From positions 6,758 to 70,757 of the forward strand of contig JAZOQY010000032.1 in NCBI GenBank assembly GCA_045656285.1: a stretch of 64,000 bases of DNA. The letters are read 5' to 3'. This document shows, one piece after another, positions 18,624 through 48,693 of the stretch. Below the pieces are notes generated by a model, which searched no databases, was not told the DNA's origin, and saw only the letters and a program-made list of their open reading frames with translations. The DNA comes from Kiritimatiellia bacterium (GTDB lineage Bacteria; Verrucomicrobiota; Kiritimatiellia; RFP12; UBA1067). A program made the translations under genes and the position numbers. How positions within the stretch are numbered: the first letter of the stretch is position 1; each line of letters starts with the position of its first letter.

Positions 18624-18699
18624 GCGAGCTTAACTCAGTTGGTAGAGTGCCACCTTGCCAAGGTGGTTGTCGAGGGTTCGAGTCCCTTAGCTCGCTCCA
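18624..18699 (+). tRNA. tRNA-Gly (GCC)
   Basis: A hand-folded cloverleaf. Acceptor gcgagct/agctcgc, anticodon stem ccacc/ggtgg with loop ttGCCaa, T-loop gttcgag, and an encoded CCA. Confidence 0.9.
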
Positions 18700-18720
18700 A
18701 TCAATCCGAGGCAGTGAAAT

Positions 18721-18796
18721 GGGAGCATAGCTCAGCTGGTAGAGCAAGTGACTCTTAATCACTGGGTCCAGGGTTCGAATCCCTGTGCTCCTACCA
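18721..18796 (+). tRNA. tRNA-Lys (CTT)
   Basis: Acceptor gggagca/tgctcct, anticodon stem agtga/tcact with loop ctCTTaa, T-loop gttcgaa, and an encoded CCA. Confidence 0.9.
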
Positions 18797-18813
18797 TTTC
18801 CAACCTATACTGT

Positions 18814-18889
<76 letters not shown>

Positions 18890-27075: not shown

Positions 27076-27151
27076 GGCGAGATAGCTCAGTTGGTAGAGC
27101 GCAGGACTCATAAGCCTAAGGTCAAGGGTTCGATCCCCTTTCTCGCCACCA
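27076..27151 (+). tRNA. tRNA with anticodon CAT (elongator Met or Ile2; not an initiator, since 1-72 is G-C)
   Basis: Acceptor ggcgaga/tctcgcc, D-arm gctc/gagc, loop ctCATaa, T-arm aaggg/ccctt, and an encoded CCA. The anticodon stem cagga/gccta has only 3 Watson-Crick pairs in my fold. Confidence 0.8.
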
Positions 27152-35675: not shown

Positions 35676-36590
35676 ATGACTATCAATGAATTGAATACAC
35701 GTTACGGTGCTCCCGGTCGCATCGTCTTTCACCAAGGCCATTGCGGTTATCCCGAGGTGGTGCTTGCCAACAAGTTCGGAACAGCCGAAGTCGCTCTTAT
35801 GGGCGCGAATGTTCTTTCGTACAAGCCTACGGGCCATGCGCCCGTGATATTCCGTCCCGCGAAGCGCGACTACAATCGCGGCGAATCGTTCCATGGCGGA
35901 ATTCCCGTCTGCTGGCCGCAGTTCGGACGACTCGCGATTCCCGGAATGTCGCCTCACGGATTCGCTAAAATAATGCCGTTTACCGTCCGCGCGACGCAGT
36001 ATTCCGAAGACATGACCGAAATTACGCTCGCGTTGAAATCATCTGAAGAAACGAAGAGCCTCTGGCCGTACGATTTCGATCTGGAGGTTAAGATTTCAGT
36101 TTCGATGAAGCTCAATCTGAAGCTCACGACGAGAAATACGGGCGAGGCGCCGTTTGAGTTCACGGCCGGGTTCCACCCGTATTTTCTCGTCAGAGAGCGC
36201 GACAACGTCGCGGTCAGAGGCCTGGACGGCTGCAAATACATTTTCGCCGTGGACATGTCGGAGCATGTCCAGGAGGGCGATCTCAAGATGAATACGGACG
36301 CTGATCATGTTTATACTTTGAAAGAAGAGCTTAAACATGAGTTCGCCATTCTCGATCCCGGACTTAAGCGCGCTTTGGCGATGGTTTCAACCGGCAATGA
36401 ATGCGCTGTTGTTTGGAATCCGGGTCCTGAAACGAAGCTTGCGGACTTGGAAGACGGCGATTGGCGCAAATTTATCTGCGTTGAGCCTGTTACAATCTGG
36501 CCGAAAGCCTTGGAGACGATTAAGCCCGGCGAGAAGCATGAACTCGTTGTTGCGATTCAGTCTTCTCAGGAAGAAGCCGAACAAAACTAA
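35676..36590 (+). CDS. D-hexose-6-phosphate mutarotase (aldose 1-epimerase family, YeaD-like)
   Basis: Motifs GGIPVCWPQFG and FHPYF. Length (304 aa) and layout match glucose-6-phosphate 1-epimerases. Confidence 0.8.
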   Translation: MTINELNTRYGAPGRIVFHQGHCGYPEVVLANKFGTAEVALMGANVLSYKPTGHAPVIFRPAKRDYNRGESFHGGIPVCWPQFGRLAIPGMSPHGFAKIMPFTVRATQYSEDMTEITLALKSSEETKSLWPYDFDLEVKISVSMKLNLKLTTRNTGEAPFEFTAGFHPYFLVRERDNVAVRGLDGCKYIFAVDMSEHVQEGDLKMNTDADHVYTLKEELKHEFAILDPGLKRALAMVSTGNECAVVWNPGPETKLADLEDGDWRKFICVEPVTIWPKALETIKPGEKHELVVAIQSSQEEAEQN

Positions 36591-36645
36591 AAATCTGTTC
36601 GTGGGCGAATATAAAACTTCATTTCGCGCATCACGAAAAATTTGC

Positions 36646-36774
36646 AATAGATATTTATGGATACTCTCGCGGGCGCCTGTGATCGACAGGAATGTCAGAA
36701 ATGTCATTCTGGCCGAAGCTAAACGCCGCGGATATGATACCGCTAAACTCATTTGGGTCGAACAATCGGAATAA
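36646..36774 (+). pseudogene. 3' remnant of a bacterial lipocalin (Blc) gene
   Basis: NRYLWILSRAPVIDRNVRNVILAEAKRRGYDTAKLIWVEQSE is colinear with the Blc C-terminus (DYLWILSRTP...SKFIWVQQ). No N-terminal two-thirds and no start codon are present. Confidence 0.6.
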
Positions 36775-36776
36775 CG

Positions 36777-36808
36777 TTACCCCCGCATTTTTAAAAATGC
36801 GGGGGTAA
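36777..36808. repeat. Perfect 32-nt palindrome (possible bidirectional terminator)
   Basis: ttacccccgcattttt|aaaaatgcgggggtaa, with 16 nt pairing perfectly to the next 16 nt. It starts 3 nt after the blc-remnant stop. Confidence 0.8.
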
Positions 36809-36959
36809 TATTCGGGCAGACATTTCGGGGCGTTTTTAGACCCGGCAGAAGTTGCCGGATACAGTTTTATTTCTCCTAAAAGTCGAGGTGTTTTAGGTTT
36901 CGCTTTTTCTCCTTGTAATGCCGTTTTTGCGCCTTTTTGTGCATAAAATCGAAGATATT

Positions 36960-36968
36960 TGGTATAAT
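36960..36968 (+). promoter_or_regulatory. Extended -10 element (TGgTATAAT) at the head of the island operon
   Basis: tttggtataat lies 23 nt upstream of the ATG at 36992. Confidence 0.4.
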
Positions 36969-36991
36969 ATTGTTCAGAAAACGAATGACAA

Positions 36992-38050
36992 ATGAGAACT
37001 AATACAACAGATGGCGTTCTTAAGCGCGATATACTGGAATGGCACGTTCCAGAGGAGGTCCTTGCGGTCTTGCTGAAAGACCGCTCGACGGGGCGCAATC
37101 TCATCTGGGCGACGGACGACTATACCGCGCGCGGCAAAGGCTTTGGCGTGAACGATGAGATACAGGTCGCGCAGATTGCGGACAGAGACCATCCCGTGAT
37201 TCGTCCTCGCGTGGACAAAAATGCGGAGGAACAACGGCAGCGCTCTGTCAAGCGCGCGGAAGTGTTCACGCCGTCATGGATATGCAACAAGCAGAACAAC
37301 CTTGTGGATGCCGCCTGGTTTGGATGGAAGAAACGCGATTCAAGTCCGTTCAATACCGAAATCGTCAAGTTTGATTCTGAAGCCGAATTCGGCTGGAAAT
37401 CAACTTGCGGCAAGCATATAAAATTCCCCAAAGGTAAGACCTGGCAGGAATATGTCAAGGCTCCGCGTCTGGAGGTGTCGTGCGGGGAGGCTCCGTATCT
37501 TGCAAGTAGATATGACACGGTAAGCGGCAGGATTATTCCCGTAGGCGAACGCATTGGGTTGCTGGATCGCAAGCTGCGCGTGATTACGGAGAATATCGGC
37601 ATGGGTGATATACAGGATTGGCTGTATTACGCCAAACGTGCGGTGCAAAGCATTTATGGCTTCGACTGGCAAGGCGACAATGTCCTTCTTGCGCGGGAGA
37701 ATGTGCTGTTTACGGTCGTTGAAAGCTTCAATGCGGATTTCTTCGGGGAGGAGAGTTCGGGGTTGAATTGGACGACGAAGTCATTGCTGGAGTTTGCCGA
37801 AATCATCAGCTGGAACATCTGGCAGATGGATGGAATCAAGTATGTCGTGCCGATGAGCTGTAAGCCGAAGGTGACGAAAGAAACGCTTCTTGACGGAACT
37901 GTTAAAACACATGTTGAAGAGTGTCCTGGTTGCAGTAAGAAAGGAAATCGTCAGCACTTTGGCACGTATTGCAAGGTCATGGATTGGAATACAGGCGAGC
38001 CGGTCGAATTCAGGGCGATTGCAGAAAACGGAGGTGGGCATGGCAAATAG
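36992..38050 (+). CDS. Hypothetical protein with methyltransferase-fold-like motifs but no (D/N)PPY; restriction-modification associated
   Basis: The 352-aa ORF leads the RM operon. AEVFTPSWICNKQNNLVD resembles gamma-class motif X, and RLEVSCGEAPYLASRYD resembles motif I. No NPPY or DPPY is present. A Cys pair (CPGCSKKG) lies near the C-terminus. Confidence 0.65.
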   Translation: MRTNTTDGVLKRDILEWHVPEEVLAVLLKDRSTGRNLIWATDDYTARGKGFGVNDEIQVAQIADRDHPVIRPRVDKNAEEQRQRSVKRAEVFTPSWICNKQNNLVDAAWFGWKKRDSSPFNTEIVKFDSEAEFGWKSTCGKHIKFPKGKTWQEYVKAPRLEVSCGEAPYLASRYDTVSGRIIPVGERIGLLDRKLRVITENIGMGDIQDWLYYAKRAVQSIYGFDWQGDNVLLARENVLFTVVESFNADFFGEESSGLNWTTKSLLEFAEIISWNIWQMDGIKYVVPMSCKPKVTKETLLDGTVKTHVEECPGCSKKGNRQHFGTYCKVMDWNTGEPVEFRAIAENGGGHGK

Positions 38051-39149
38051 AAACAGAAAGAAAACCGCGTCTGTCGAGGTTGTCGAAAGCGTGGAGAAAG
38101 AACTTTATGAGAACGTTCGAGCCTACATATCTGCGGCGCGTGCAAAGGTCTATACTGTAGCTAATGCGGAGATGGTAAAGGCATACTGGAACGTCGGACG
38201 CGAAATTGTCGAAAAACAGGGTGGCGCAGATCATGCGAAGTATGGGGATGGCTTGATTAAGAACCTGTCAGTGAAGCTGACTGCTGAATTTGGGCCTGGC
38301 TATACGGGGGCAAATTTGCGCTATATGCGACTTGTGTATCTTGCATTTCCGAATTGTCACACACTGTGTGACAAATTGAGTTGGTCGCATTATCGTCTGT
38401 TGGCAGCAGTGGATAAAATTGAAGCGCGTGATTTCTATTTGTCAGAGGCTGTGAAGTGTAAGTGGAGCGTTCGAGATTTGCAAAGACAGATTGAGACGCA
38501 GTTTTACCAGCGGCTGATTGCAAATCATGTCGATTTGTCTTCTGCGGGAAATCTTGTTAAGCGAGGGAAGGTGGAGGCACGGGACATCGTCCGTAGTCCT
38601 GCAATTCTGGAGTTTGCCGGTATTTCTCCAGCGGAGTACAAGGAAAAGGATCTTCAAACAGGGCTTGTCAAACACCTTAGCAAGTTCATGTTGGAACTGG
38701 GGCGTGGTTTTGCGCTTGTGCGTGAGCAGTGTCCCATACAGATCGGGAACGAGACTTATCATTGTGATCTCCTGTTCTACAACTTCATTGCTCGGTGCTT
38801 TGTCTTGATTGACCTTAAAGTCGGGAAGGTAACACCGCAGGATATCGGGCAGATGCAGCTCTACAAGCATTACTACGAACGTGAAATGATGAATCCCGGC
38901 GACAATCCGCCGATAGGAATTGTTCTTGGCTCCGACAGAGATGAGGCGGTCATCCGTTATACTCTCAACGAACATGAGCGCAATCTTTTTGCGGTGAAGT
39001 ACCATCTTGATCTGCCGACGGTCGAGGAGCTGAGCCTTGAATTGCAGCGTGAACGCGCCGCTATTGAAGAGGCCATGGCGCTTCGCGCCCTCTCGCCGGA
39101 TGATAAATGTGTCGAAGGGATTTCGTTGAAAGTTAAAAAAAACGAGTGA
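38040..39149 (+). CDS. DUF1016/YhcG-family PDDEXK nuclease-domain protein
   Basis: The N-terminal half (YWNVGREIVEKQGG...YGDGLIKNLSVKL...LSWSHYRLL) and the C-terminal HCDLLFYN...FVLIDLKVGK core match YhcG. ATG 38040 overlaps the upstream stop by 11 nt. Confidence 0.75.
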   Translation: MANRNRKKTASVEVVESVEKELYENVRAYISAARAKVYTVANAEMVKAYWNVGREIVEKQGGADHAKYGDGLIKNLSVKLTAEFGPGYTGANLRYMRLVYLAFPNCHTLCDKLSWSHYRLLAAVDKIEARDFYLSEAVKCKWSVRDLQRQIETQFYQRLIANHVDLSSAGNLVKRGKVEARDIVRSPAILEFAGISPAEYKEKDLQTGLVKHLSKFMLELGRGFALVREQCPIQIGNETYHCDLLFYNFIARCFVLIDLKVGKVTPQDIGQMQLYKHYYEREMMNPGDNPPIGIVLGSDRDEAVIRYTLNEHERNLFAVKYHLDLPTVEELSLELQRERAAIEEAMALRALSPDDKCVEGISLKVKKNE

Positions 39150-39179
39150 GATTACTAAATCGGTGTAAAGGAACTGAAA

Positions 39180-42100
39180 ATGATAACCATAAGCAACTTC
39201 AAAACTGTACTTTCGACATGTCTCGGTTTTGCACAGACTGATATACTAAAACCTAATACGTGGACGCGAGTGTTTCGCCACGGCAAAGACGGAAAATCGG
39301 ATTGTGTATTATCGGTAGATTTTGAGAAGCAGAAAATTGACTATGACGATGCTGGAATAGACATTGGCGGCGGCACGACGGTAAGCTTCGCGCCCGATGC
39401 GAACGGCAAGGTGCAAAACGAGAACTTTGTTGTTTTCGAGTGTGTTGTACGTCTCCTTTCCAAAGGCTATAAGGCGTGTGACATATTTCTTGAGAAGAAA
39501 CACACGCTCGGACACAGCCAAAAATCTGGACGTCTTGACATTACCGTAGCAAAGGATGGGAATGCCTATCTCATCATTGAGTGCAAGACCGCAGGAACAG
39601 AATACAAAAAGGCTCGCAAGGAACTTTTCGGCGATCCTGAAGGAAAGCAACTTTTCAGTTATTGGGCGCAGGCGCGTTCGACGAAGTGGCTGCAATTGTA
39701 CGCCTCTGATTATGATGCCACAAGTAACGCAATAGCGGTTGAAGAGGAAATCATCCGTTCCCATGATGATAGAAATATCGAACTACTTGCTTCTAAAGAT
39801 GCACCCATTGCGCTTTACAGATCAGCGTCGGAGGCTACAGATGCGTGGAGAGTCTGGGACGAGACTTATCACAAAGAGACATATAGGAGCCTTGTTTTTG
39901 GTGACAATTGTGTCGCGTACAATATCGGCATCCAGCCGCTTGTAAAAAAGGATTTGCGCCGGTTTACGCAGGAAGATGGATTTACGAACACTTTTCGCGA
40001 AATACTGCGGCACAATGCGATTAGCGACAAAGAAAACGCTTTCAACAAGCTGCTTTCGCTTTTCATTTGCAAATTTGTCGATGAAGCCCGTTGCAGCGAG
40101 CAGGACGTTGTTTCATTTCAGTATAAGGACGGTCAGGACGATTATTATTCCCTCTATGAACGGTTGCTTGCCCTCTTCCAGATTGGCATGAAGGACTATC
40201 TCAAGGAGGAGGTCTTCTATCTGGAGAACGACTACATAACAAAGACACTCGACACTTTTACGGGTAAAAAACGTAAAGCCCTAGAAGCGGAACTTAAAGA
40301 CAAGTTCCAGAAGACGAAGATGCTTTCTTGCCAGGTGTTCGCTTTCCGCGAGGTTTACAATGAAACGCTTTTCCTTCAGAATGGCAAGGTCCTGGTGGAG
40401 ATTGTGAAACTGATGCAGCAGTATCAGTTTGCGTATTCATCCAAGGAACAGTTGTTGGGTGATCTTTTCGAGAATCTTCTAAGCCAGGGGTTCAAGCAGG
40501 AAGCGGGGCAATTCTTCACGCCTACGCCTATAACGCGCTTTGTGTGGAACGCACTTCCCTACGAACGTTTCCTCAATTGCGCAAAGAAGTCAGTGCCGCG
40601 TGTCATAGACTTTGCTTGTGGATCGGGGCATTTCCTGACCGAGGGCATTGCTGCAATTTCGGATTTCTACCGAACCGCAGGACTCTCCAAGGAAAAGTTT
40701 CCCGATTCTGCTATTTCGCGCAAGTTCTTCGGAATCGAGAAGGACAATCGCCTTGCAAAGGTCTCAAAGATAGCAATGATTCTGAACGGCGCTCTTGAAG
40801 GTCGGATAAAGGCTGACGATGGACTTGAACATGACGAGGATTTTCTCGGCAAGAAACACTCTTTTGACATCCTTGTCGCGAATCCTCCATATTCCGTCGA
40901 CTCTTTCAAGACGCATGAATCTGTCACTGTGCAGAAAGCGTATGAGACAATTTCTCTAATGTCAATAGACTGTTCCCGCATTCAAAACGTCTTTGTGGAG
41001 CGAATGGAGCATCTGTTGAAATCAGGCGGCATTTCGGCAATTGTTCTGCCGTCGCCGTTTCTGACAAATGACGAAAGCGACACTAACAAGGCCCGTGAAA
41101 TATTGTTGCACAATTTCACGATAAGGGCCATTGCCGAATTCGGGAACAAAGCATTTGCCGAGACTGGGACGAATACCGTAATCCTTTTCCTTGAACACTT
41201 CAACTTTCCTCCGCGCAAAGCGGCCTTGCTGAACGATACGGTCGATGCGATCCTTTCCGGCGAGGAGCTGTCCGATTGGGAGGATAAAGAAATATTCTCT
41301 GCGTACCTTTCCAAGATTGGTGTCGCCGAAAATGACTATCTCGACGCAATGTCTGAAACGTTTTCGCCGGACACTTTCAGTACAGACTATTTCAAGGCTT
41401 ATGTTGGCGCATTGCTTTCTAAAGGTGCCATTGCGAAAGACGTGGAGAAAGCGGCGAAAGAAAAAGACCCAACGAAAAAAGCGGAAATCCAAAAGAGGAT
41501 AAAGGAGCGGTTTTACATCGCACTCAAAGAGACGGAGCGGGCAAAAATACTCGCATTTGCCATCGTGCGCAAGCAGAAGACTGTACTTGTCAAGTCGCCT
41601 ACTGACAATGACGAGCAGGAGCGTTTTCTCGGTTACAAGTTCTCGAAGCGCCGCAATTCGGAGGGCTTGAGCGAAACTGGTACAAGCCAGTTGACGAACA
41701 ACCACGACCGCGCCGACAAAACAAAAATTGCCTACGCCATAAAAAATGCTTTCGCGGACGATTATGTATTGCCCAATGGAATGAACCATGTCTCGGTTGT
41801 CAACACCGCAGATATGCTTGATTTCTCCCGTCCGTATTTTAATTGGTCTTTTTCCTTGTCATCCAAAGCAGTGTCAGCCATTTCAAGCAAGTTTCATCTT
41901 GTAAAGATGGCGGATGTTATCAACCTTCGTTCAGGACAAGACCTGACCCCAGAGCGTTATAATGACAATCAAGAAGGAATCCCGTATATCACGGGCGCCA
42001 GTAATTTTGAGGGAGGTGAAATTATAATAAACCGCTGGACTTCTTCGCCTACATCTATAGCGAACAAGGGGGACTTACTCATTACTTGTAAAGGTACTGT

Positions 42101-42464
42101 CGGCAAAATGGCATATTTGCATGTTGACAAGGCTCATATAGCTCGTCAGATAATGGGTATAACAGCAAAGAAAAACTTGAAGTTGTCATATCTGAAATAT
42201 ATTCTTGAAATTATTGTAGTTCATTTGTCTGCGCAGGCAAAAGGCATGATTCCTGGTATCAAGCGAGAGGACATATTAAACGCTGATATTCCATTGCCAC
42301 CACTTGATGTTCAGAAAAAGGTAGTTGCAGAGTGCGAAAAAGTGGATGAAGAATACAATACTTCGCGTATGGCGATAGAGGAATACCGCGCCAAAATCGC
42401 CAAGGTTTTTGCAGACCTTGAAGTTATAATTGCACAAAATGGGGGGGGGGGTATAAGAAAATGA
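39180..42464 (+). CDS. Single-chain restriction-modification enzyme: N-terminal PD-(D/E)XK nuclease, gamma-class N6-adenine methyltransferase and one C-terminal HsdS-type target-recognition domain (type IIG/IIB-like)
   Basis: GRLDITV...AYLIIECK nuclease motif. GQFFTPTPI (motif X), VIDFACGSGHFL (motif I) and LVANPPYS (motif IV). The last ~200 aa look like a Methylase_S TRD plus a conserved helix (KKVVAECEKVDEEYN...). Confidence 0.8.
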   Translation: MITISNFKTVLSTCLGFAQTDILKPNTWTRVFRHGKDGKSDCVLSVDFEKQKIDYDDAGIDIGGGTTVSFAPDANGKVQNENFVVFECVVRLLSKGYKACDIFLEKKHTLGHSQKSGRLDITVAKDGNAYLIIECKTAGTEYKKARKELFGDPEGKQLFSYWAQARSTKWLQLYASDYDATSNAIAVEEEIIRSHDDRNIELLASKDAPIALYRSASEATDAWRVWDETYHKETYRSLVFGDNCVAYNIGIQPLVKKDLRRFTQEDGFTNTFREILRHNAISDKENAFNKLLSLFICKFVDEARCSEQDVVSFQYKDGQDDYYSLYERLLALFQIGMKDYLKEEVFYLENDYITKTLDTFTGKKRKALEAELKDKFQKTKMLSCQVFAFREVYNETLFLQNGKVLVEIVKLMQQYQFAYSSKEQLLGDLFENLLSQGFKQEAGQFFTPTPITRFVWNALPYERFLNCAKKSVPRVIDFACGSGHFLTEGIAAISDFYRTAGLSKEKFPDSAISRKFFGIEKDNRLAKVSKIAMILNGALEGRIKADDGLEHDEDFLGKKHSFDILVANPPYSVDSFKTHESVTVQKAYETISLMSIDCSRIQNVFVERMEHLLKSGGISAIVLPSPFLTNDESDTNKAREILLHNFTIRAIAEFGNKAFAETGTNTVILFLEHFNFPPRKAALLNDTVDAILSGEELSDWEDKEIFSAYLSKIGVAENDYLDAMSETFSPDTFSTDYFKAYVGALLSKGAIAKDVEKAAKEKDPTKKAEIQKRIKERFYIALKETERAKILAFAIVRKQKTVLVKSPTDNDEQERFLGYKFSKRRNSEGLSETGTSQLTNNHDRADKTKIAYAIKNAFADDYVLPNGMNHVSVVNTADMLDFSRPYFNWSFSLSSKAVSAISSKFHLVKMADVINLRSGQDLTPERYNDNQEGIPYITGASNFEGGEIIINRWTSSPTSIANKGDLLITCKGTVGKMAYLHVDKAHIARQIMGITAKKNLKLSYLKYILEIIVVHLSAQAKGMIPGIKREDILNADIPLPPLDVQKKVVAECEKVDEEYNTSRMAIEEYRAKIAKVFADLEVIIAQNGGGGIRK
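42441..42451 (+). repeat. G11 homopolymer tract at the end of the R-M-S gene, 9 nt before the hsdS-like ATG
   Basis: Direct count gives aaaat-ggggggggggg-tataagaaaATG. It encodes the GGGG near the C-terminus of the 1094-aa protein. Confidence 0.95.
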
Positions 42465-43027
42465 TTGATATAAGTGTTATCAATGTTGACTCAATAGACC
42501 CTAGTGCGTATCCAGACAAAGAGTTTACGTATATTGACATTGACGCGGTTCAGAATGGTGAAGGAACGTTTGCGACCGATAAGAAGATTCTTGGTTCTAA
42601 CGCTCCGTCAAGAGCGCGCAGGATTGCAAGAAGCAACTCTACCCTTGTCTCTACTGTTCGCCCTAATCTGAAAGGCTTTGCTTATGTAGAGAATGAAATA
42701 AAGGATGCTGTGTATTCGACGGGTTTTGCAGTCTTAAAAAGCAAAGATACAGATGTTCTTCTAGACAAGATGATTTACTATATGTTCATGTATTCCAACG
42801 ACCTTATGGAGCAAATGATAGCCGCCATGCCGAAAGGATCCTATCCGTCAATCAATAAGGATGACATAGAGAACTTTATTATCCCAATCCCGCCTATTGA
42901 CGAACAGAAGAAAATTGTTGCAGAAGTTGTGAACTATGAATCCAAAATCACCAAGGCGAAAGCGGTCATGGATTCCGCACCAGCTCGCAAACAGGCTATA
43001 CTGCGAAAGTATGGAGTGATTGCATGA
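42461..43027 (+). CDS. Half-size HsdS-like specificity subunit (single target-recognition domain)
   Basis: 188 aa, with a TRD-like N-terminal part and a conserved C-terminal helix PIPPIDEQKKIVAEVVNYESKI. The start overlaps the upstream stop (ATGA). Confidence 0.75.
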   Translation: MIDISVINVDSIDPSAYPDKEFTYIDIDAVQNGEGTFATDKKILGSNAPSRARRIARSNSTLVSTVRPNLKGFAYVENEIKDAVYSTGFAVLKSKDTDVLLDKMIYYMFMYSNDLMEQMIAAMPKGSYPSINKDDIENFIIPIPPIDEQKKIVAEVVNYESKITKAKAVMDSAPARKQAILRKYGVIA

Positions 43028-43029
43028 TA

Positions 43030-43193
43030 AGTTCTTGGTATAGATTTGATACCGACTGGTCGCGTCCAATTCCTGAGATCGACGCGCAGCTATACGCGAA
43101 TACGGCCTCACCGAAGCCGAGCAGAAGTTCATCGAATCCATGATCAAGCCGATGGAGCCTAGCGGCGCTTTCCGCGGTAGTTTGAATTTCTAA
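43030..43193 (+). pseudogene. Frameshifted 3' remnant of another restriction/modification-type gene (C-terminal tail only)
   Basis: One frame reads SWYRFDTDWSRPIPEIDAQLY. The adjacent frame reads REYGLTEAEQKFIESMIKPME. This LYxxYGLTEEE..FIExxIKPM tail is one I associate with large RM/helicase enzymes. There is no start codon and a TGA at 43074. Confidence 0.45.
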
Positions 43194-43206
43194 TGAAAGG
43201 AGAAGT

Positions 43207-44136
43207 ATGAAGCAATATGTTAAGGTGATGTTGGGGCGTAAAAGCTGTATGGCGGACAAGTGCCATGCGGATGGATTTATCGGCGCGGGATTCCTCTCAA
43301 AAGTCGATTTTTCGAAAAATCTTTATGATGAGTGGCGAGAATTCAACAAGAAGTATATCCCGGTCTATTTGAAGGAATGCCCGGGGAAGAGTAGGGTCGC
43401 GGCGGGTTTAAGCTGCGGTTATCTTTGGACGGTTTGCAAAGGGCTTCGGACTGGTGATGTTGTCCTTTCGCCGACAGGGAACAAGGGCGAACTGTACGTT
43501 GGCGAGGTGATCGGTGACTATTATTACGTGAAGGGCAACGACTTTCCGCACCGTCGTAAGGTTAAATGGTACAACGTCATCCTTCATCGCGAAGACATGA
43601 GTGAAGATCTCCAGCATTCCTCTGGAGCAATTGGAACCTGTGCAGATCTTTCAAAATATGCACAGGAGATCGAGAAGCTAATCGGCACGAACGCGCCTGT
43701 TCGAGTCATGACGAATGATCCAGACATCGAGGACCCGAGTGTCTTTGCGATGGAGAAGTATCTCGAAGAGTTCCTTGTTTCGAATTGGAAGAATACCGAC
43801 CTTGGCAAGAAATACGATATCTTCAGCGACGAGGGCGAGACGATAGGAGAGCAGTATCCGACCGATACGGGGCCCATTGACATACTGGCCATCAGCAAAG
43901 ACCGCAAGACAGTACTTGTTATTGAACTTAAGCGAGGTCAGGCCTCTGATCGCGTCGTCGGTCAGATCCAACGCTACATGGGTTACGTGAAGGATGAAGT
44001 CCTCGAAAAAGGACAGAAGTTGAAGGGTTTAATCATCGGTCTTAAACCTGATCAAGGTCTCAAGCGGGCGCTTTCTATGTGTCCTGATATCGAATTCCGC
44101 CGTTACAAAGTCGACTTCAAGTTGCTAAAGGATTGA
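43207..44136 (+). CDS. NucS/DUF91-like PD-(D/E)XK nuclease with an unassigned N-terminal domain
   Basis: RBS aaaggaga. The C-terminal half (LEEFLVSNWKNTDLG...GPIDILAISKDRKTVLVIELKRGQASDRVVGQIQRYMGYV) matches the NucS-type nuclease core. Confidence 0.65.
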   Translation: MKQYVKVMLGRKSCMADKCHADGFIGAGFLSKVDFSKNLYDEWREFNKKYIPVYLKECPGKSRVAAGLSCGYLWTVCKGLRTGDVVLSPTGNKGELYVGEVIGDYYYVKGNDFPHRRKVKWYNVILHREDMSEDLQHSSGAIGTCADLSKYAQEIEKLIGTNAPVRVMTNDPDIEDPSVFAMEKYLEEFLVSNWKNTDLGKKYDIFSDEGETIGEQYPTDTGPIDILAISKDRKTVLVIELKRGQASDRVVGQIQRYMGYVKDEVLEKGQKLKGLIIGLKPDQGLKRALSMCPDIEFRRYKVDFKLLKD

Positions 44137-44149
44137 GGAGGTTGAATGG

Positions 44150-44218
44150 ATGCTTAACTTCATCATTAACTACGACATCAAATACCGCATGGGCGACGAA
44201 CTGAACGCGGAGGAGTAA
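44150..44218 (+). CDS. Possible 22-aa ORF (MLNFIINYDIKYRMGDELNAEE)
   Basis: It is preceded by gaggagg. There is no other support. Confidence 0.2.
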   Translation: MLNFIINYDIKYRMGDELNAEE

Positions 44219-44243
44219 TAAATTTGAAAGGATTACATACGGC

Positions 44244-44459
44244 ATGGGAGAAGAATTAGTTTTTGGCAAGGGGTTGCCAGGTCGTGTGGCCCTCGCCAAC
44301 TCGCGGGATCGGCTTGTTGCTCCGATGAATCCTGCTGGAGGGGCTATGGCAATTTGCACTCGTGATCGGCTGATTTCGCCGTGTAATCCGTCCACACGTA
44401 CACAGGATCGATTGCCGACACCAACACGTCCACAGGGTTCGGGAACGCAACGGCATTAA
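44244..44459 (+). CDS. Small protein (71 aa) with three DRLxxPx(N/R)P repeats
   Basis: Repeats lie at 44307-44333, 44364-44390 and 44406-44432. At the conserved residues they differ from each other at synonymous codon positions. The RBS is weak. Confidence 0.45.
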   Translation: MGEELVFGKGLPGRVALANSRDRLVAPMNPAGGAMAICTRDRLISPCNPSTRTQDRLPTPTRPQGSGTQRH

Positions 44460-44475
44460 TTTGAGGAGGGTAATT

Positions 44476-44580
44476 ATGAATGATAGAGGAGATGTTGTAA
44501 AATCGGTGGGCGGCGTCGTGCAAGGTACTGCAGACCGATTGTCGGCACCTGCAAACCCCGTGACGCGTCCTGTGAAATAG
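44476..44580 (+). CDS. Small ORF (34 aa) carrying a fourth DRLxxPxNP motif, in frame with the downstream SLATT-like ORF across a single TAG
   Basis: AGGAGG lies 6 nt before ATG 44476. The motif is at 44533-44559. TAG at 44578-44580 is followed directly by the same-frame ORF starting at 44581. Confidence 0.45.
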   Translation: MNDRGDVVKSVGGVVQGTADRLSAPANPVTRPVK

Positions 44581-44622
44581 GTGGACGTTTTGGGCGAATC
44601 GCTGACAGATCGCTTCTGGATA

Positions 44623-45135
44623 ATGAAGCATGGGCTGCAACGCTCGTATTATTATTACGAGTCGCGCCGTTGTTTTTGGATGTTGTTTTTGATTGTCACA
44701 AAAGCAGCAGAGTTCTTTGTTGGCTATCCAGCTGTCGCGTCATTAATAGATGGGAAACTGAGCGTTTGGGTTTGGGTTCGGGCCATCGTTGCTACCGGAT
44801 CATCTGTCTTGACTTTGTGCCAGGCGACTTCGCGCAGAGACATCCTTTTGCATCAGATGCGAGAGATGGGCGCGTGCTTGGGGATGATGCCTTATCGCTC
44901 GGAAGACGAGACAGAGGAGTTGTACCTAAAAATCAAGATGCGTCGCGAAAAGGCAGAACGTAAGGACGATGTAATTTTCGAAGTCGTGGATGCGATGTGC
45001 TATAACAAAGCATGCAAGACACTTGGTGCTGCAGAACGTTGGCGTATCACCCCTTGGCAGAAGTTTTTCGGATGGTGGTTGCCGATACCATATACGATGA
45101 ACGCGAAAATGGAACGGGTGGAAAACGGTGTGTAG
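44623..45135 (+). CDS. Two-TM membrane protein, SLATT-like putative effector
   Basis: Two hydrophobic helices (CFWMLFLIVTKAAEFFVGYPAVASLI and VWVWVRAIVATGSSVLTLC) are followed by a ~100-aa soluble tail. It lies directly upstream of the RT gene. An alternative start is GTG 44581. Confidence 0.6.
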   Translation: MKHGLQRSYYYYESRRCFWMLFLIVTKAAEFFVGYPAVASLIDGKLSVWVWVRAIVATGSSVLTLCQATSRRDILLHQMREMGACLGMMPYRSEDETEELYLKIKMRREKAERKDDVIFEVVDAMCYNKACKTLGAAERWRITPWQKFFGWWLPIPYTMNAKMERVENGV

Positions 45136-45162
45136 GCAACAGTTTGTAAATAAAACGGAGCG

Positions 45163-48100
45163 ATGGCGAACAGTAGTGATAGTATTTTTACATTAAAGAA
45201 TGCAACGACGGCTTATAAAAAAGCGAAAGTCGATGCATGGAAATTGCATACGATTAATGCTACCGATTTTATGCAGTTTGAGGTCGGCTTTAAGGAGAAC
45301 ATTGTTGATTTCTTGGCGGATATTTCTTGGGTTGATTATCAAAAGATTTTGTCTGATGATTGGCTGGGAACATGGTCATATCGGATAAAGAAAGTCCATC
45401 CATTGGAGGAGGAGGTCGCCGGTGAAATATTTTCAGCTCCAGTAAAACAATTAAAAGGGTGCAGTGTCAAGAGTGTTGATTTCAGGGTGTTTGCAGATCC
45501 GTCGGTTAAATTTCATTTGCTGAGTGCATTTTGGATTGCTATGGTTGCGCCAAAATACAATGCGAAACTGCGGAGTTGCGTTTATGGTAATTGTCTTCGA
45601 CATGGGCAGAATCCTCGTGCCGCAGGATCGTTTGTTGGATATATTGGTAAATTGCAGGAGTGGAAGAAACGGGCAATTGGCACAACGAAGGAATTGTTAA
45701 ATCAGAAAAAAGAGGCAATCGTTGTCACGGCGGATGCAACGGCATTTTACCATTCGTTGAAGCCAGACTTTCTATTGAATGAAACCTATTTAAGAAGAGT
45801 CGGTATAAATTTGACGGATGAAGAACGGGGGCTGACAAGGTTGTTGATATCTGCTATAAATTACTGGGCATCACAAACACCGCTAAAAAGTGGGCTCCCA
45901 GTAGGATTGCCTGTGTCGGCCGTGATTGCAAATCTTGCGCTAGTTGAATTTGACTCAATTGTGTGTGACAGGGTGAAACCTGCTTATTATGGTCGATATG
46001 TTGATGATTTGTTGTTTGTATTTGAAAGGGGCGAAGGAATAAATAATAGGACGGAAGTGTGGCAGCATATTCAACGAGCGTCGAGGAATTTCAGATTAGA
46101 GTTTGTCGGCGGGGATAAGCCTGTGTTGGATTTTGTCCCACAATATGAGGCCGATATTACGAACTCCCGTATTTCATTCAATGGTGAAAAATGCAGGGTG
46201 ATGTTTTTAGATTCAAAATCAGGTGTGGGTTTTATCCGCAGATTGGAAAATCAGATTCGAGAAGTTTCCAGTGAGTTTCGCCTGCTGCCTGAACATATTG
46301 GGGACGCTAAGAGTGTTGAACACCGATTACTGAAACTCGTAGATGCTGACGGAGAGATAGTGGATTCATTTCGTAAAATCGAGATGATGACATTCAGGAA
46401 GGCTGATTTCACGGGATTTGTTCAAGAGATGGAGTTTTTCCAGCGAACATTGATTCCGGCGATGTGGCAAGCACAAAGGCAAGCTTTTTATCGGTTTGTG
46501 TGTGATTACATATTGTCGCTAAAACACTATGACGAATATGAGGCAAATTTATTCCAGATAATCACGCTTGCGGTGAGTTGTGGGGATTTTGTTGAGTTGA
46601 GCAATATTATAGATTCATTGAATGCCCTGGCGAATGAGATTTTGGGCGTTAAATCGTTGTGTGTTGCCCATCCCAAGCAAAGGACTGGGCAGATGCATGA
46701 AATGCAATTCTTGATTACGAAGCAGAATGTTGCGGATCAATGGTTGAGTCGATTGTATGTTCGAATCGCTGACTGCGTTCAGAGAAGTTTTAATTGTCGT
46801 GGTGACGCATCGTATCGTGCGCGATACGATGCGTTTCGTGAGAAATTTCTGGTAAATGCAGGAATCCGATTACTTCCTTCGGCACGCGTTTCAACCTATA
46901 ATCAGCATGCGCTAATTCATGATGTAAGTGAGTTTAGGTATGTTGATCATTTATATCGCAAGGAAATACGTTCCAATAGAATTATCTCTGATAATGGCGG
47001 CATGAGATTGTTATCTGTTGGGTTGAAAATGGACGATGAGGTTAAGTCACTGTTTGATGATTTGTTTTTGGCTGGAGTAGATGCAGTCTATAAAAATGTT
47101 TTGAAAGATGTTTATAAATCTGATGAGATTCCTTATGGGATGTTGTTTCCAACGCGACCTCTCGTTCAGCATGATTTATTCTGGTTGGAAGATGCGAGCT
47201 TGTGGGTAGATAATTCTGATGTAATAATGCAGGCATTCCGTGGGTATGCTGCCAAATTGACAAACAGGGAGCGTGTAAATGATGTGGATATTTTATCTGT
47301 GCCGACGCGGCGAAATCATAAAGTGAGAATTGCGTTGGTAAATATGAAAACTAAAAATGAGGATGTCTACGCAAATTTTATCGAGATTTCACCAGAGTTG
47401 CGATTTCATAGGTTTTGCAAGATTGTTGAGTTAATTAATCGAGTGTTACGGAATGAAAAGAACTTGGATTACATTGTGCTTCATGAGTTGGCGTTGCCTG
47501 CCGAATGGTTTGTGCCGATTGCTGAAAGGTGTGCAATTAGTGGTGTATCTATAATCTCGGGCATTGATTATCTGGTTACTGAAAAGGATAAATATTGCAT
47601 AAATCCTGTGTGGATGTCGCTTGTCGGTGAGAAGGATGGTGGATTTCGTCAGACAGTATATATTTGTGAGAATAAGAAAGATTTCTCGTATGAAGAAGAA
47701 AAAGAAATATCTGACAGAGGCTATCAAAATGATCCTTACAAGACGAAAGAAGATCATGCCATAATTAGGCATGGAGATTTTTGTTTTTCAACGCTGATTT
47801 GTAGCGAACTAACGGATATAGAAAATCGGACGCGTCTACGAGGACTGATTGACGCATTGTTTGTGGTGGAGTGGAATAAGGATGTTAATTCGTTTGCGCC
47901 GATTGTAGAAGCGACCGCGTTGGATCTGAGCGCTTATGTGATTCAATGTAATAATAACGAGTATGGTGATAATAGAATTCGTGTGCCGGCAAAAGAAAAG
48001 CACTTGCGTGATTTGATTCGGTTGAGGGGAGGAGACGCTCCTTATTATGTGTGTGAATCACTTGATGTCAATGCATTGCGCGCACATCAAGAAGAATGGT

Positions 48101-48213
48101 TTGCGAATCGTGATGGGGCCCGTACGACACGAGAGGACTGGGCGTTCAAACCATTACCCAGAGGGTATAAGTTATTTCGATTTCGTTTCCCCGATTCTGA
48201 ATGTGCGGAATAG
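45163..48213 (+). CDS. Defence-type reverse transcriptase (UG/Abi class) with a helical middle region and a C-terminal nitrilase (C-N hydrolase) domain
   Basis: RT motifs VTADATAFYHSL, GLPVGLPVSAVIANLAL and YGRYVDDLLFV (YVDD at 45997-46008). The nitrilase triad candidates are E775 in IVLHELALP, K838/K839 in ICENKKDF and C880 in STLICSEL. Confidence 0.8.
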   Translation: MANSSDSIFTLKNATTAYKKAKVDAWKLHTINATDFMQFEVGFKENIVDFLADISWVDYQKILSDDWLGTWSYRIKKVHPLEEEVAGEIFSAPVKQLKGCSVKSVDFRVFADPSVKFHLLSAFWIAMVAPKYNAKLRSCVYGNCLRHGQNPRAAGSFVGYIGKLQEWKKRAIGTTKELLNQKKEAIVVTADATAFYHSLKPDFLLNETYLRRVGINLTDEERGLTRLLISAINYWASQTPLKSGLPVGLPVSAVIANLALVEFDSIVCDRVKPAYYGRYVDDLLFVFERGEGINNRTEVWQHIQRASRNFRLEFVGGDKPVLDFVPQYEADITNSRISFNGEKCRVMFLDSKSGVGFIRRLENQIREVSSEFRLLPEHIGDAKSVEHRLLKLVDADGEIVDSFRKIEMMTFRKADFTGFVQEMEFFQRTLIPAMWQAQRQAFYRFVCDYILSLKHYDEYEANLFQIITLAVSCGDFVELSNIIDSLNALANEILGVKSLCVAHPKQRTGQMHEMQFLITKQNVADQWLSRLYVRIADCVQRSFNCRGDASYRARYDAFREKFLVNAGIRLLPSARVSTYNQHALIHDVSEFRYVDHLYRKEIRSNRIISDNGGMRLLSVGLKMDDEVKSLFDDLFLAGVDAVYKNVLKDVYKSDEIPYGMLFPTRPLVQHDLFWLEDASLWVDNSDVIMQAFRGYAAKLTNRERVNDVDILSVPTRRNHKVRIALVNMKTKNEDVYANFIEISPELRFHRFCKIVELINRVLRNEKNLDYIVLHELALPAEWFVPIAERCAISGVSIISGIDYLVTEKDKYCINPVWMSLVGEKDGGFRQTVYICENKKDFSYEEEKEISDRGYQNDPYKTKEDHAIIRHGDFCFSTLICSELTDIENRTRLRGLIDALFVVEWNKDVNSFAPIVEATALDLSAYVIQCNNNEYGDNRIRVPAKEKHLRDLIRLRGGDAPYYVCESLDVNALRAHQEEWFANRDGARTTREDWAFKPLPRGYKLFRFRFPDSECAE

Positions 48214-48419
48214 AGGAGGAAATACAGAACCATGTCGAAAGGTGCGTTGAACACAGAGAGTAATAAATTGTCGCGGTTGTGGATAGTTTGTTGTGCGGGC
48301 TGGTTGGGAAGATCGTTACCCGACGTGAGGAAAATTGCAAGCGGCTTTGAGGCGATGAGTTCGGCCGGGCGGACGTGGGGTGTGGCTTGGTGTGATATAA
48401 TTTGAAACGGAGGTAAAGG

Positions 48420-48551
48420 ATGAATAAAAATGTGACGCGGAGACCCAGGAAAGTCCCGAGTTATACATTTAGCGACAAGATGATTTCCCTTGTCGCTGAA
48501 ATAACAGAAGTCGCTACGCACCTTGAAATGCGCGAAAGAAACAATAAATAG
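48420..48551 (+). pseudogene. 43-aa ORF resembling the N-terminus of a Fic/DOC-family protein (truncated remnant)
   Basis: MNKNVTRRPRKVPSYTFSDKMISLVAEITEVATHLEMRERNNK. The YTFSxKMIxLVAEI pattern recalls Fic_N starts. It has its own tgtgatataat element and ggagg RBS, but stops after 43 aa. Confidence 0.3.
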
Positions 48552-48652
48552 CTAAGTTGAATAATTAGGAGTTGTTGAGATGTCCAAGCAAGAAATCATA
48601 AAAGGCGGGGATATTCCCGGTTCCGATTTGCAATCCGCCGTCTGTTCTTTTT

Positions 48653-48661
48653 TGATATAAT
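48653..48661 (+). promoter_or_regulatory. Extended -10 element (TGaTATAAT) of iorA
   Basis: ttttgatataat lies 32 nt upstream of the ATG at 48694. Confidence 0.45.
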
Positions 48662-48693
48662 ATGATTTTATCAATAACACAGTCAGGAAGAAT

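Follow-up and report, generated by a model that had tools for sequence, protein, structure and literature searches.

Organisation of the locus

Two overlapping open reading frames (ORFs) meet at a tract of 11 consecutive G (G11) on the forward strand of the 64 kb stretch of DNA analysed here (the window; Table 1). In the frame of this allele the upstream ORF ends with ..AQNGGGGIRK and a TGA codon (42462-42464), which overlaps the ATG (42461-42463) of a 188-aa ORF beginning with MIDISVINVD... The tract is the only homopolymer of 10 bases or more in the window, followed by T9 and three A8, and base composition predicts 0.056 runs of G11 or longer in the window. GGG accounts for 16% of the glycine codons in the window. 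No other frame breaks were seen in the two ORFs. A promoter and terminator scan of positions 38800-43400 gave no more sites than shuffled sequence, and none of the sites lay between the two ORFs. An Rfam scan of the window returned four tRNAs and nothing else.

Table 1. Features of the G-tract locus in the window
Feature	Position	Strand	Evidence or content
R-M-(half S) ORF, 1094 aa in the G11 frame	39180..42464	+	putative nuclease, N6-adenine methyltransferase, TRD1, CR1
Putative nuclease catalytic motif GRLD(120)...IIE(134)CK(136)	39528..39587	+	motif positions, conservation, weak HSDR_N_2
Methyltransferase motifs DFACGSG (residue 477, AdoMet-binding) and NPPY (residue 568, catalytic)	40608..40892	+	
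TRD1 (target recognition domain 1), about residues 905-1041	41892..42302	+	Methylase_S 905-1058
CR1, conserved coiled-coil helix after TRD1, residues 1042-1086, ..DVQKKVVAECEKVDEEYNTSRMAIEEYRAKIAKVFADLEVIIAQ	42303..42437	+	
G11 homopolymer, probably hypermutable tract	42441..42451	+	codes for the glycine linker joining CR1 to TRD2
ATGA overlap	42461..42464	+	G tract ends 9 nt upstream of the ATG
TRD2 + CR2 ORF, 188 aa	42461..43027	+	Methylase_S 1.4e-10

An earlier sequence-only reading of the window had noticed the tract, the end of the upstream protein and the hsdS-like start codon, all of which were correct on recounting, and had suggested that 9 or 12 G would fuse the two ORFs. Translation in silico bears this out: nine G give a protein of 1281 aa (..NGGGYKKMIDISV..) and twelve a fusion of 1282 aa, whereas 7, 10 or 13 G stop at ..GV*, with G10 reading GTA TAA as had been claimed, and 8, 11 or 14 G stop at ..IRK*. 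The allele of the window is thus out of frame, in the one-TRD state. Both of the predicted fused products, NGGGGYKKM.. (+1, 1282 aa) and NGGGYKKM.. (-2, 1281 aa), occur naturally in close relatives (P0127, P0126, P0002 and P0133).

Domain architecture of the predicted enzyme

The gene is predicted from its sequence to encode a single-chain Type IIB/IIG restriction-modification-specificity (R-M-S) enzyme of the BsaXI/TstI/AloI type. The 1094-aa ORF matched the PADLOC model PDLC03624 (REase_MTase_IIG) with E=4e-212, residues 1-1080 aligning to positions 1-1066 of 1271, and residues 7-184 of the 188-aa ORF matched positions 1086-1268 of the same model. Within the longer ORF, Pfam recognised N6_Mtase (8.9e-28) and Eco57I (7.7e-13), and the residues of the DFACGSG and NPPY motifs were invariant in the homologue alignment A1. 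The N-terminal nuclease is putatively of the PD-(D/E)XK type: HSDR_N_2 was weak at residues 94-145 (22.9 bits, under the 25-bit cut-off), and the predicted motif residues D120, E134, C135 and K136 were invariant in 34 homologues. No helicase or ATPase family of an ATP-dependent translocase, such as Type I and Type ISP enzymes possess, was found among the Pfam, NCBIfam and PADLOC matches; all the R, M and S functions lie in one ORF, and there are no adjacent hsdR or hsdM genes.

The closest solved structure is that of the Type IIB enzyme RM.BsaXI, by sequence (9e-22) as well as by fold (2.6e-20). The AlphaFold model of the 1094-aa monomer is of moderate quality (pLDDT 67, pTM 0.46) and served solely to place the end of the helix and to compare folds domain by domain. 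The match of this model (pLDDT 67) to the whole RM.BsaXI chain extended over 891 columns, and the modelled TRD1 fold matched half of the HsdS subunit 5ybb_D (172 columns, rmsd 2.4 A). The model predicts a beta-rich domain at residues 907-996, helices at 1042-1062 and 1066-1086, and disorder at 1087-1094. The CR1 helix is thus predicted to end at residue 1086, and the tract, encoding residues 1088-1091, follows directly afterwards.

TRD2 and CR2 form the C-terminal part of the same protein in the G9 and G12 relatives. The TRD2 equivalent of P0002 (residues 1091-1265) matches the HsdS structures 3okg and 5ybb with E=1e-42, and the TRD2 alignment begins at residue 14 of an HsdS structure. The S region consists of two modules of equal size (187 and 188 aa), and the motif PxPPxDxQKKxVAE recurs in both CR1 and CR2. 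Two TRDs and two helices in one chain are found in G9/G12 relatives (P0002, P0126 and P0127) and not in the G11 window; among the best 120 homologues about 104 are two-TRD fusions of 1229-1300 aa. A reading of the 188-aa ORF as a free-standing hsdS gene of the usual kind was considered and rejected: the ORF covers the C-terminal stretch of a model for one gene, and relatives distinguished solely by their G count have it in the reading frame of the upstream ORF.

Variation of tract length on identical backgrounds

The window region was matched by 39 runs, and tract lengths were compared between samples from assembled contigs. Contigs of about 4 kb from five runs (L100, L086, L087, L098 and L099) carry G8, G9, G9, G10 and G11, respectively, and show no mismatch in flanks of at least 3371 nt on the 5' side of the tract and at least 677 nt on its 3' side, so that tract length is the sole variable site among them. 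Protein records gave the same picture: the 90% cluster of the window protein has 13 members, of 1090, 1091 (three), 1093 (four), 1094 (three), 1281 and 1282 aa. No differences were found in the 1086 residues before the tract between P0126 and P0127 (G9 versus G12), P0123 and P0133 (G8 versus G9) or P0122 and P0130 (NGGRV* versus G8). Metagenome contigs of near relatives carry G9, G12 and G15. The tract shows two of the features of a contingency locus: it is an uninterrupted homopolymer of about 8 bases or more in a reading frame, and its length differs between closely related strains while the flanks are conserved.

These data bear on the explanation offered as an alternative in the sequence-only reading, that the length is an error of this assembly and the true gene is the in-frame fusion. 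Errors are frequent in homopolymers of 11 bases, many metagenome contigs are interrupted at the tract, and close relatives carry the in-frame alleles G9 and G12. Still, separately made assemblies of different origin (L088 from NCBI, L089 and L090 from ENA, L099 from Logan) also have G11, and a one-off error is for this reason unlikely. Half of the loci with a tract likewise have an out-of-frame length at this site, and the two ORFs are otherwise unbroken, so that this alternative appears improbable. The differences between assemblies could nevertheless be partly homopolymer or assembler noise. Contigs terminate at the tract in eight runs, in one of them at a word depth of 51, which is suggestive, although such breaks fit real heterogeneity and poor sequencing of poly-G alike.

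Slippage of RNA polymerase or ribosomal frameshifting on the G run might also yield a mixture of truncated and full-length protein from one DNA allele, and would account for the tolerance of out-of-frame alleles. This is a general possibility for long homopolymers, but transcriptional slippage is known mostly at A/T runs, and variation of length was seen directly at the DNA level; such a mechanism has little probability here.

Distribution of the tract in related loci

Comparison of tract length and frame in orthologous loci, proposed earlier as a check, covered 85 related loci and revealed a tract of G7-G16 at this junction in 33 of them, about half in frame (15 of 33, the other 18 being out of frame). 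These loci were assigned to Kiritimatiellota, Lentisphaerota, Spirochaetota, Bacteroidota, Bacillota and Campylobacterota, with the reservation that taxonomic labels of MAG contigs may be wrong. Cultured carriers are exemplified by Histophilus somni, Neisseria leonii and Treponema pedis. Family members from Wolinella and Helicobacter also bear the tract, while no Campylobacter protein was present among the best 120 homologues, nor among the best 120 of a Helicobacter-seeded search. Some in-frame relatives have interrupted tracts (L019, GGGGGAGGGAGA; L020, AGGAGTGGG). There are also stable one-TRD relatives, which end at the same position and have no TRD2 downstream: L051 (1099 aa), L094 (1106 aa) and L095-97 (1076 aa).

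Together with the length polymorphism on identical backgrounds, the recurrence of the tract at one junction supports the slipped-strand homopolymer switch first suggested from the sequence. The toggle between split and fused architectures suggested with it is supported with a qualification. Fused and unfused forms both occur, but in most other family members no start codon follows the tract, and across the family the out-of-frame state is therefore a one-TRD enzyme and not a split into two subunits.

In the clade of the window, of which the ATGA overlap is a feature, a functional split deserves separate consideration. The 188-aa TRD2-CR2 protein might be translated from the ATG at 42461 by ATGA coupling and reassemble with RM-TRD1-CR1, which would make G11 equivalent to G9 and G12 and the variation silent. 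The overlap itself is consistent with this, and the G run 9 nt 5' of the ATG could serve as a Shine-Dalgarno-like element. The identical arrangement is found in L088, L089 and L099, G11 is the commonest out-of-frame length in the clade, the 188-aa ORF is called as a gene on many contigs (cluster 3), and BcgI and BsaXI, Type IIB enzymes of two chains, have a separate S subunit. However, the Met sits in a linker that reads YKL-K in other relatives and that offers no start in most of the family, and G10 and G8 on the same background lose the overlap or alter the spacing. A silent split is thus unlikely.

Comparison with known systems

Among Type II systems, the predicted protein resembles the single-chain enzymes AloI, TstI and PpiI and the two-chain enzymes BsaXI and BcgI, all of which combine a nuclease, a gamma-class N6-adenine methylase and an HsdS-like module with two TRDs. 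The likeness to Type IIB enzymes includes size (about 1250-1280 aa; TstI has 1251 aa, PMC4027205), and that to AloI and TstI consists in domain order and length. BsaXI forms an (RM)2S assembly (PMC11997821). No description of a phase-variable tract in AloI, TstI or BsaXI was found in the literature searched.

Tracts are known in other R-M genes. In Helicobacter pylori, the Type IIG genes JHP1272 and HP1353-HP1354 contain homopolymer tracts inside R-M fusion genes, a second tract deciding on an extra C-terminal recognition domain and changing the motif from GGWTAA to GGWCNA, and the S gene of the BcgI-like HP1471/HP1472 bears a G repeat (Krebes et al. 2014, PMC3936762). All of these share with the window gene a homopolymer tract in an R-M gene; the H. 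pylori enzymes differ in being MmeI-like: their motif is contiguous and read on one strand, and the domain that is added is small, in place of an HsdS-like two-TRD module with coiled-coil helices. The Campylobacter cj1051c (CjeI) group consists of R-M-S fusions, with repeat-bearing, putatively phase-variable homologues in 22 genomes (PhasomeIt, PMC6321876). As described, the group resembles the window gene in comprising R-M-S fusions with repeats; for tracts in cj1051c/CjeI itself or in the Histophilus somni enzymes, the literature gave only these repeat-bearing homologues of the cj1051c group.

The closest functional parallel is found among Type I systems. The hsdS gene of NgoAV carries a poly-G tract of 6-15 nt, the length of which decides between HsdS400 and HsdS200, the latter being a dimer that recognises a palindromic target (bioRxiv 10.64898/2026.01.10.698759). 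The place of repeats in hsdS genes is always between the TRDs, just past the coiled coil, and the tracts of Mannheimia and Salmonella are G10-12 (Atack et al. 2020, PMC7383803). In the window gene, likewise, poly-G stands directly after the coiled-coil helix behind TRD1, a change of its length leads to a two-TRD or a TRD1-only product, and the downstream TRD is annotated as a separate 'S2' ORF. Unlike in NgoAV, nuclease, methylase and specificity module share one chain of Type IIB/IIG architecture, with neither an HsdR motor nor a separate HsdM, so truncation would also alter the RM:TRD stoichiometry. Moreover, the truncated form of NgoAV was shown to be active, whereas activity of the truncated window enzyme is a prediction. 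The window locus would operate in the manner of NgoAV, although it does not belong to a Type I system: the known switch by a repeat between two TRDs of Type I hsdS is here placed inside a fused R-M-S gene. The REBASE survey of hsdS repeats took in Type I loci only (PMC7383803).

Possible function of the tract

Very probably the G11 run, which lies where CR1 meets TRD2 in a single-chain Type IIB/IIG R-M-S gene, is a contingency tract that varies by strand slippage. Gains and losses of G during replication, which we infer to occur within populations, would move TRD2 in or out of frame. With 9 or 12 G, an enzyme of 1281 or 1282 aa with two different TRDs would be made, and an asymmetric bipartite site would be expected; with 7, 8, 10 or 11 G the product would be an enzyme of about 1090 aa comprising only the nuclease, methylase, TRD1 and the coiled-coil helix. 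In the G11 allele the stop codon overlaps an ATG, so translational coupling may in addition yield TRD2 as a protein of its own. By analogy with NgoAV and other hsdS repeats, the one-TRD product would most likely homodimerise through CR1, and the resulting (RM)2S-like complex, in which TRD1 is present twice, would have a specificity that is bipartite and palindromic. If so, the tract would switch specificity and not simply turn the system off.

A simpler possibility is that the tract is hypermutable and the one-TRD product inactive, restriction and modification being turned on and off together. The abundance of out-of-frame tracts and the absence of a start codon after the tract in most of the family are in agreement with it, and truncated half-subunits do sometimes fail, as NgoAV HsdS200 without LEAT repeats is inactive (bioRxiv 10.64898/2026.01.10.698759). 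A further point against switching of specificity is that a DNA-cutting enzyme with a new specificity could damage the host's own chromosome. On the other hand, on several contigs the ORF of the stable one-TRD relatives (1076-1106 aa) is unbroken, the truncated product is predicted to retain the complete CR1 helix needed for dimerisation, and truncated hsdS products are active in NgoAV (PMC7383803; bioRxiv 10.64898/2026.01.10.698759). Plain ON/OFF variation seems, on this evidence, somewhat unlikely.

Returning to a tract that switches specificity, it may tentatively be proposed, with less than even confidence, that the inter-TRD poly-G is a conserved architecture switch of a whole family of single-chain Type IIB/IIG R-M-S enzymes, in at least six phyla of gut and rumen bacteria as well as Pasteurellaceae and Neisseria. 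The alternating forms would be an RM-S enzyme with an asymmetric bipartite target and an RM-half-S homodimer resembling the (RM)2S assembly of BsaXI, with a palindromic target. The specificities of restriction and methylation would then change together at high frequency. Wherever the tract does switch specificity, one gene would provide a commensal population with two or three restriction barriers and methylomes. Resistance to phages, the uptake of plasmids and possibly gene regulation (phasevarions) would be affected, in bacteria of the rumen and gut in which phase variation is rarely studied. To our knowledge, repeat-driven phase variation of the methylome has hardly been described in Kiritimatiellota, Lentisphaerota, Bacteroidota or Spirochaetota. 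Mis-annotation of the family is systematic, since automatic annotation divides or shortens its genes and metagenome contigs come to an end at the tract. The alleles from G8 to G12, which share an identical background, form a ready set for comparing the behaviour of one-TRD and two-TRD Type IIB enzymes.

The G tract and domain organisation of the R-M-S locus

The 1094-aa product of the large ORF consists of three parts: a nuclease-like N-terminus, an N6-adenine methyltransferase and one HsdS-type target recognition domain (TRD1). In the nuclease-like region, which matched Pfam HSDR_N_2 slightly under the family cut-off, the motif D120...E134-C-K136 is invariant in 34 homologues. The methyltransferase carries DFACGSG (residue 477) and NPPY (residue 568), and TRD1 corresponds to a Methylase_S match at residues 905-1058. 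A second TRD (TRD2) is encoded by the 188-aa ORF. One PADLOC model, that of a Type IIG restriction enzyme-methyltransferase (1271 positions), is covered by both ORFs in turn: profile positions 1-1066 by residues 1-1080 of the large ORF (E=4e-212), and positions 1086-1268 by residues 7-184 of the small one. No translocase domain was present among the Pfam, NCBIfam and PADLOC matches. In approximately 104 of the 120 best homologues, both TRDs lie in a single chain of 1229-1300 aa, the architecture known from the one-chain Type IIB enzymes TstI (1251 aa) and AloI (PMC4027205). Among solved structures, the nearest relatives are the RM chain of Type IIB BsaXI (9e-22 by sequence; 2.6e-20 by fold over 891 columns of a predicted model with pLDDT 67) and the HsdS subunit, which matches the C-terminal half at 1e-42 by sequence; in the predicted model, TRD1 and the following helix (CR1) can be superposed, at 2.4 A, on one half of 5ybb_D.

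Features of the R-M-S locus and its surroundings in the window
Feature	Position	Strand	Length	Remarks
tRNA genes	18624-18886			three, clustered (Rfam scan)
tRNA gene	27076-27148			one (Rfam scan)
Type II methyltransferase	36992-38050			PADLOC PDLC03390, 1.8e-103
YhcG/DUF1016 PD-(D/E)XK protein	37890-39149			PDC-S02; listed from TTG
R-M-(TRD1) ORF	39180-42464		1094 aa	C-terminus ..EVIIAQNGGGGIRK; TGA at 42462-42464
G tract	42441-42451		11 nt	11 consecutive G
TRD2 ORF	42461-43027		188 aa	ATG overlaps stop of upstream ORF
NucS-like PD-(D/E)XK protein	43207-44136			PDC-S02, 2e-142
ORF without family match	44581-45135		184 aa	precedes reverse transcriptase
Reverse transcriptase	45163-48213	+	1016 aa	PADLOC RT_UG5-nitrilase (DRT), 3.7e-213, near full length

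The G11 tract (Gn denoting a run of n G) is the sole homopolymer of at least 10 bases in the 64-kb window, for which base composition predicts 0.056 G-runs of such length by chance. Only 16% of the glycine codons in the window are GGG, so an all-GGG run would not be favoured by translation alone. In the structure model, which is of moderate quality (pLDDT 67), the long helix stops exactly at residue 1086 (..VIIAQ) and the tail is disordered; the tract is thus predicted to lie directly after CR1, the conserved coiled-coil helix behind TRD1. The modules on its two sides are equal in size (187 and 188 aa) and both end in PxPPxDxQKKxVAE. The position, ends and overlap described in the sequence-only reading are correct, and so is each of its frame statements. 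With the gene rebuilt in silico at other tract lengths, 9 or 12 G give a fusion of 1281 or 1282 aa (..NGGG(G)YKKMIDISV..), 7, 10 or 13 G lead to a stop at once (..GV*), and 8, 11 or 14 G give the ..IRK* ending.

Tract length variation among close relatives

All three frames (..NGGGYKKM.., fused; ..NGGGGIRK*; ..GGGV*) are found in relatives at 72-95% identity. The 90%-identity cluster of the window protein comprises 13 members of 1090, 1091 (three), 1093 (four), 1094 (three), 1281 and 1282 aa, lengths that correspond to G8 through G12, except for two irregular endings (P0122, ..NGGRV*, and P0131, ..NGGI*). Four homologous proteins (P0002, P0125, P0128 and P0132) are identical in amino acid sequence throughout the 1086 residues that precede the tract, and end as G9, G10, G11 and G8, respectively; two further pairs with identical backbones differ as G9 and G12 (P0126 and P0127) and as G8 and G9 (P0123 and P0133). 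At the DNA level, compared between samples on assembled contigs, five contigs from five different runs (L100, L086, L087, L098 and L099) carry G8, G9, G9, G10 and G11, and their flanks agree without a single mismatch over at least 3371 nt on the upstream side and at least 677 nt on the downstream side, the tract being the sole variable position in approximately 4 kb. Near-relative metagenome contigs carry G9, G12, G15 and one interrupted form, and in eight runs contigs terminate at the tract, one of them at word depth 51.

These several lines of comparison argue for a real variable site, and lend support to the earlier proposal of a switch between split and fused enzymes. The other possibility raised there, a length error in the assembly of the window's contig, is unlikely, since lengths vary on identical backgrounds and G11 was seen again in independent assemblies from NCBI (L088), ENA (L089 and L090) and Logan (L099).

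Logan contigs from ruminant and other gut metagenomes stop at or inside the G tract in runs X2, X3, X11, X26, X28, X29, X30 and X31; thus, metagenome assemblies and gene catalogues will often contain the two-TRD genes of this family in truncated or split form.

Distribution of the tract in the enzyme family

The comparison of orthologues proposed in the sequence-only reading revealed a G7-G16 run at exactly the CR1/TRD2 junction in 33 of 85 related loci, 15 in frame and 18 out of frame; the loci were taken from genome and metagenome collections and include some duplicates of one another. The tract-bearing records are labelled as Kiritimatiellaeota (G9), Candidatus Spyradenecus (Lentisphaerota in NCBI taxonomy; G16), Treponema (G8, G10), Wolinella (G12, G14), Helicobacter (G9), Bacteroidales and Paludibacteraceae (G7-G12), as well as Lachnospiraceae, Ruminococcus and Eubacteriales, although the phylum labels of MAG contigs may be wrong. 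Among proteins from complete Histophilus somni genomes, the junction varies by one Gly (..SRGGVK.. and ..SRGGGVK..), and the Neisseria leonii protein reads ..SRGGVK... Other in-frame members have interrupted or absent tracts, such as the loci L019 (GGGGGAGGGAGA) and L020 (AGGAGTGGG), and many read ..VKGEMKKL... This mix of pure, interrupted and absent tracts fits repeated gain, loss and stabilisation, and the inter-TRD tract is, judging from these loci, a feature of the enzyme family.

Helicobacter sp. 11S02629-2 has a second tract, G15, at the boundary between methylase and TRD1, approximately 250 codons upstream of the one at the junction (L044, 5499-5513); a related Helicobacter protein (P0150) reads ..NFVGGGGIFIS.. 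at this boundary. In this lineage, TRD1 may thus have a homopolymer tract on either side. A Treponema MAG has a separate G14 tract in the upstream flank of its R-M-S gene (L012, 575-588), which hints at other homopolymer tracts in the same genome.

The recognition modules also look mobile. The window TRD2 is 58% identical to that of the Neisseria leonii enzyme (P0179), and the R-M body only 33%. The CR1 stretch of 150 nt ahead of the tract (42290-42440) shares 73-90% DNA identity with the Candidatus Spyradenecus locus (L036), the protein of which is overall only 34% identical to that of the window. Among relatives at 72% identity or more, TRD1 and TRD2 each come in two types, which occur in different combinations.

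Possible function of the out-of-frame enzyme

A start codon after the tract is absent in most family members, so the general out-of-frame product would comprise the nuclease, methylase, TRD1 and CR1, without TRD2. Stable relatives with one TRD, lacking both the tract and a downstream TRD2, do exist: a 1099-aa protein followed by an unrelated 401-aa ORF (L051), one of 1106 aa (L094) and one of 1076 aa with a KAP NTPase gene behind it, seen on five contigs (L095-97). Their existence suggests that a one-TRD enzyme is able to function. In the Type I system NgoAV, the parallel that has been studied best, a poly-G of 6-15 nt in hsdS yields either the two-TRD HsdS400 or the one-TRD HsdS200, which dimerises along its own helix and methylates a palindromic site (bioRxiv 10.64898/2026.01.10.698759). 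A REBASE survey located hsdS repeats always between two TRDs, just behind the coiled coil (PMC7383803), and BsaXI is an (RM)2S assembly (PMC11997821). An RM-TRD1-CR1 homodimer would have this stoichiometry with a symmetric S, and a change of tract length would then switch specificity. Given these parallels, a specificity switch is tentatively favoured over a plain OFF switch, in which the one-TRD G11 state would be inactive and which appears rather doubtful. The G11 frame ends in ATGA in the window and its closest relatives, with the G run 9 nt before the ATG, so coupled translation might also yield the 188-aa TRD2 protein, which would then reassemble with the large chain and leave G11 silent; this seems unlikely.

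Comparison with known systems

The proposed mechanism belongs to a known class, simple-sequence-repeat phase variation of an R-M specificity module. Unlike the Type I cases, R, M and S here form one polypeptide of Type IIB/IIG architecture, so that the R-M-S gene lacks the feature that marks NgoAV-type systems as Type I, and the switch would also alter the RM:TRD ratio. The Type IIG enzymes JHP1272 and HP1353-54 of H. pylori differ in being MmeI-like, with a second tract that supplies an additional small recognition domain (PMC3936762), and the Campylobacter cj1051c group, which may belong to the present family, reportedly includes repeat-bearing homologues (PMC6321876). No description of an inter-TRD tract in AloI, TstI, BsaXI or the present family was found in the searchable literature, which is not proof of absence. 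Three points make the system valuable: the allele ladder is clean, the family ranges broadly across gut and rumen bacteria, and it poses a question of one versus two TRDs for Type IIB enzymes that can be tested directly.

Genomic surroundings

At positions 36000-49000, GC content is 39-52% (45% at the R-M-S locus), compared with 55-61% in the flanks; this low-GC island is packed with defence-type genes and looks like a horizontally acquired defence island. Its reverse transcriptase matched Pfam RVT_1 at 2e-9 only. No Rfam family other than tRNA reached the threshold in the window. Approximately 160 nt are shared between the mechanical ORFs called for the methyltransferase and for the DUF1016 protein; since the orthologue of the latter in L088 was called at 375 aa, its real start is probably further downstream of 37890.
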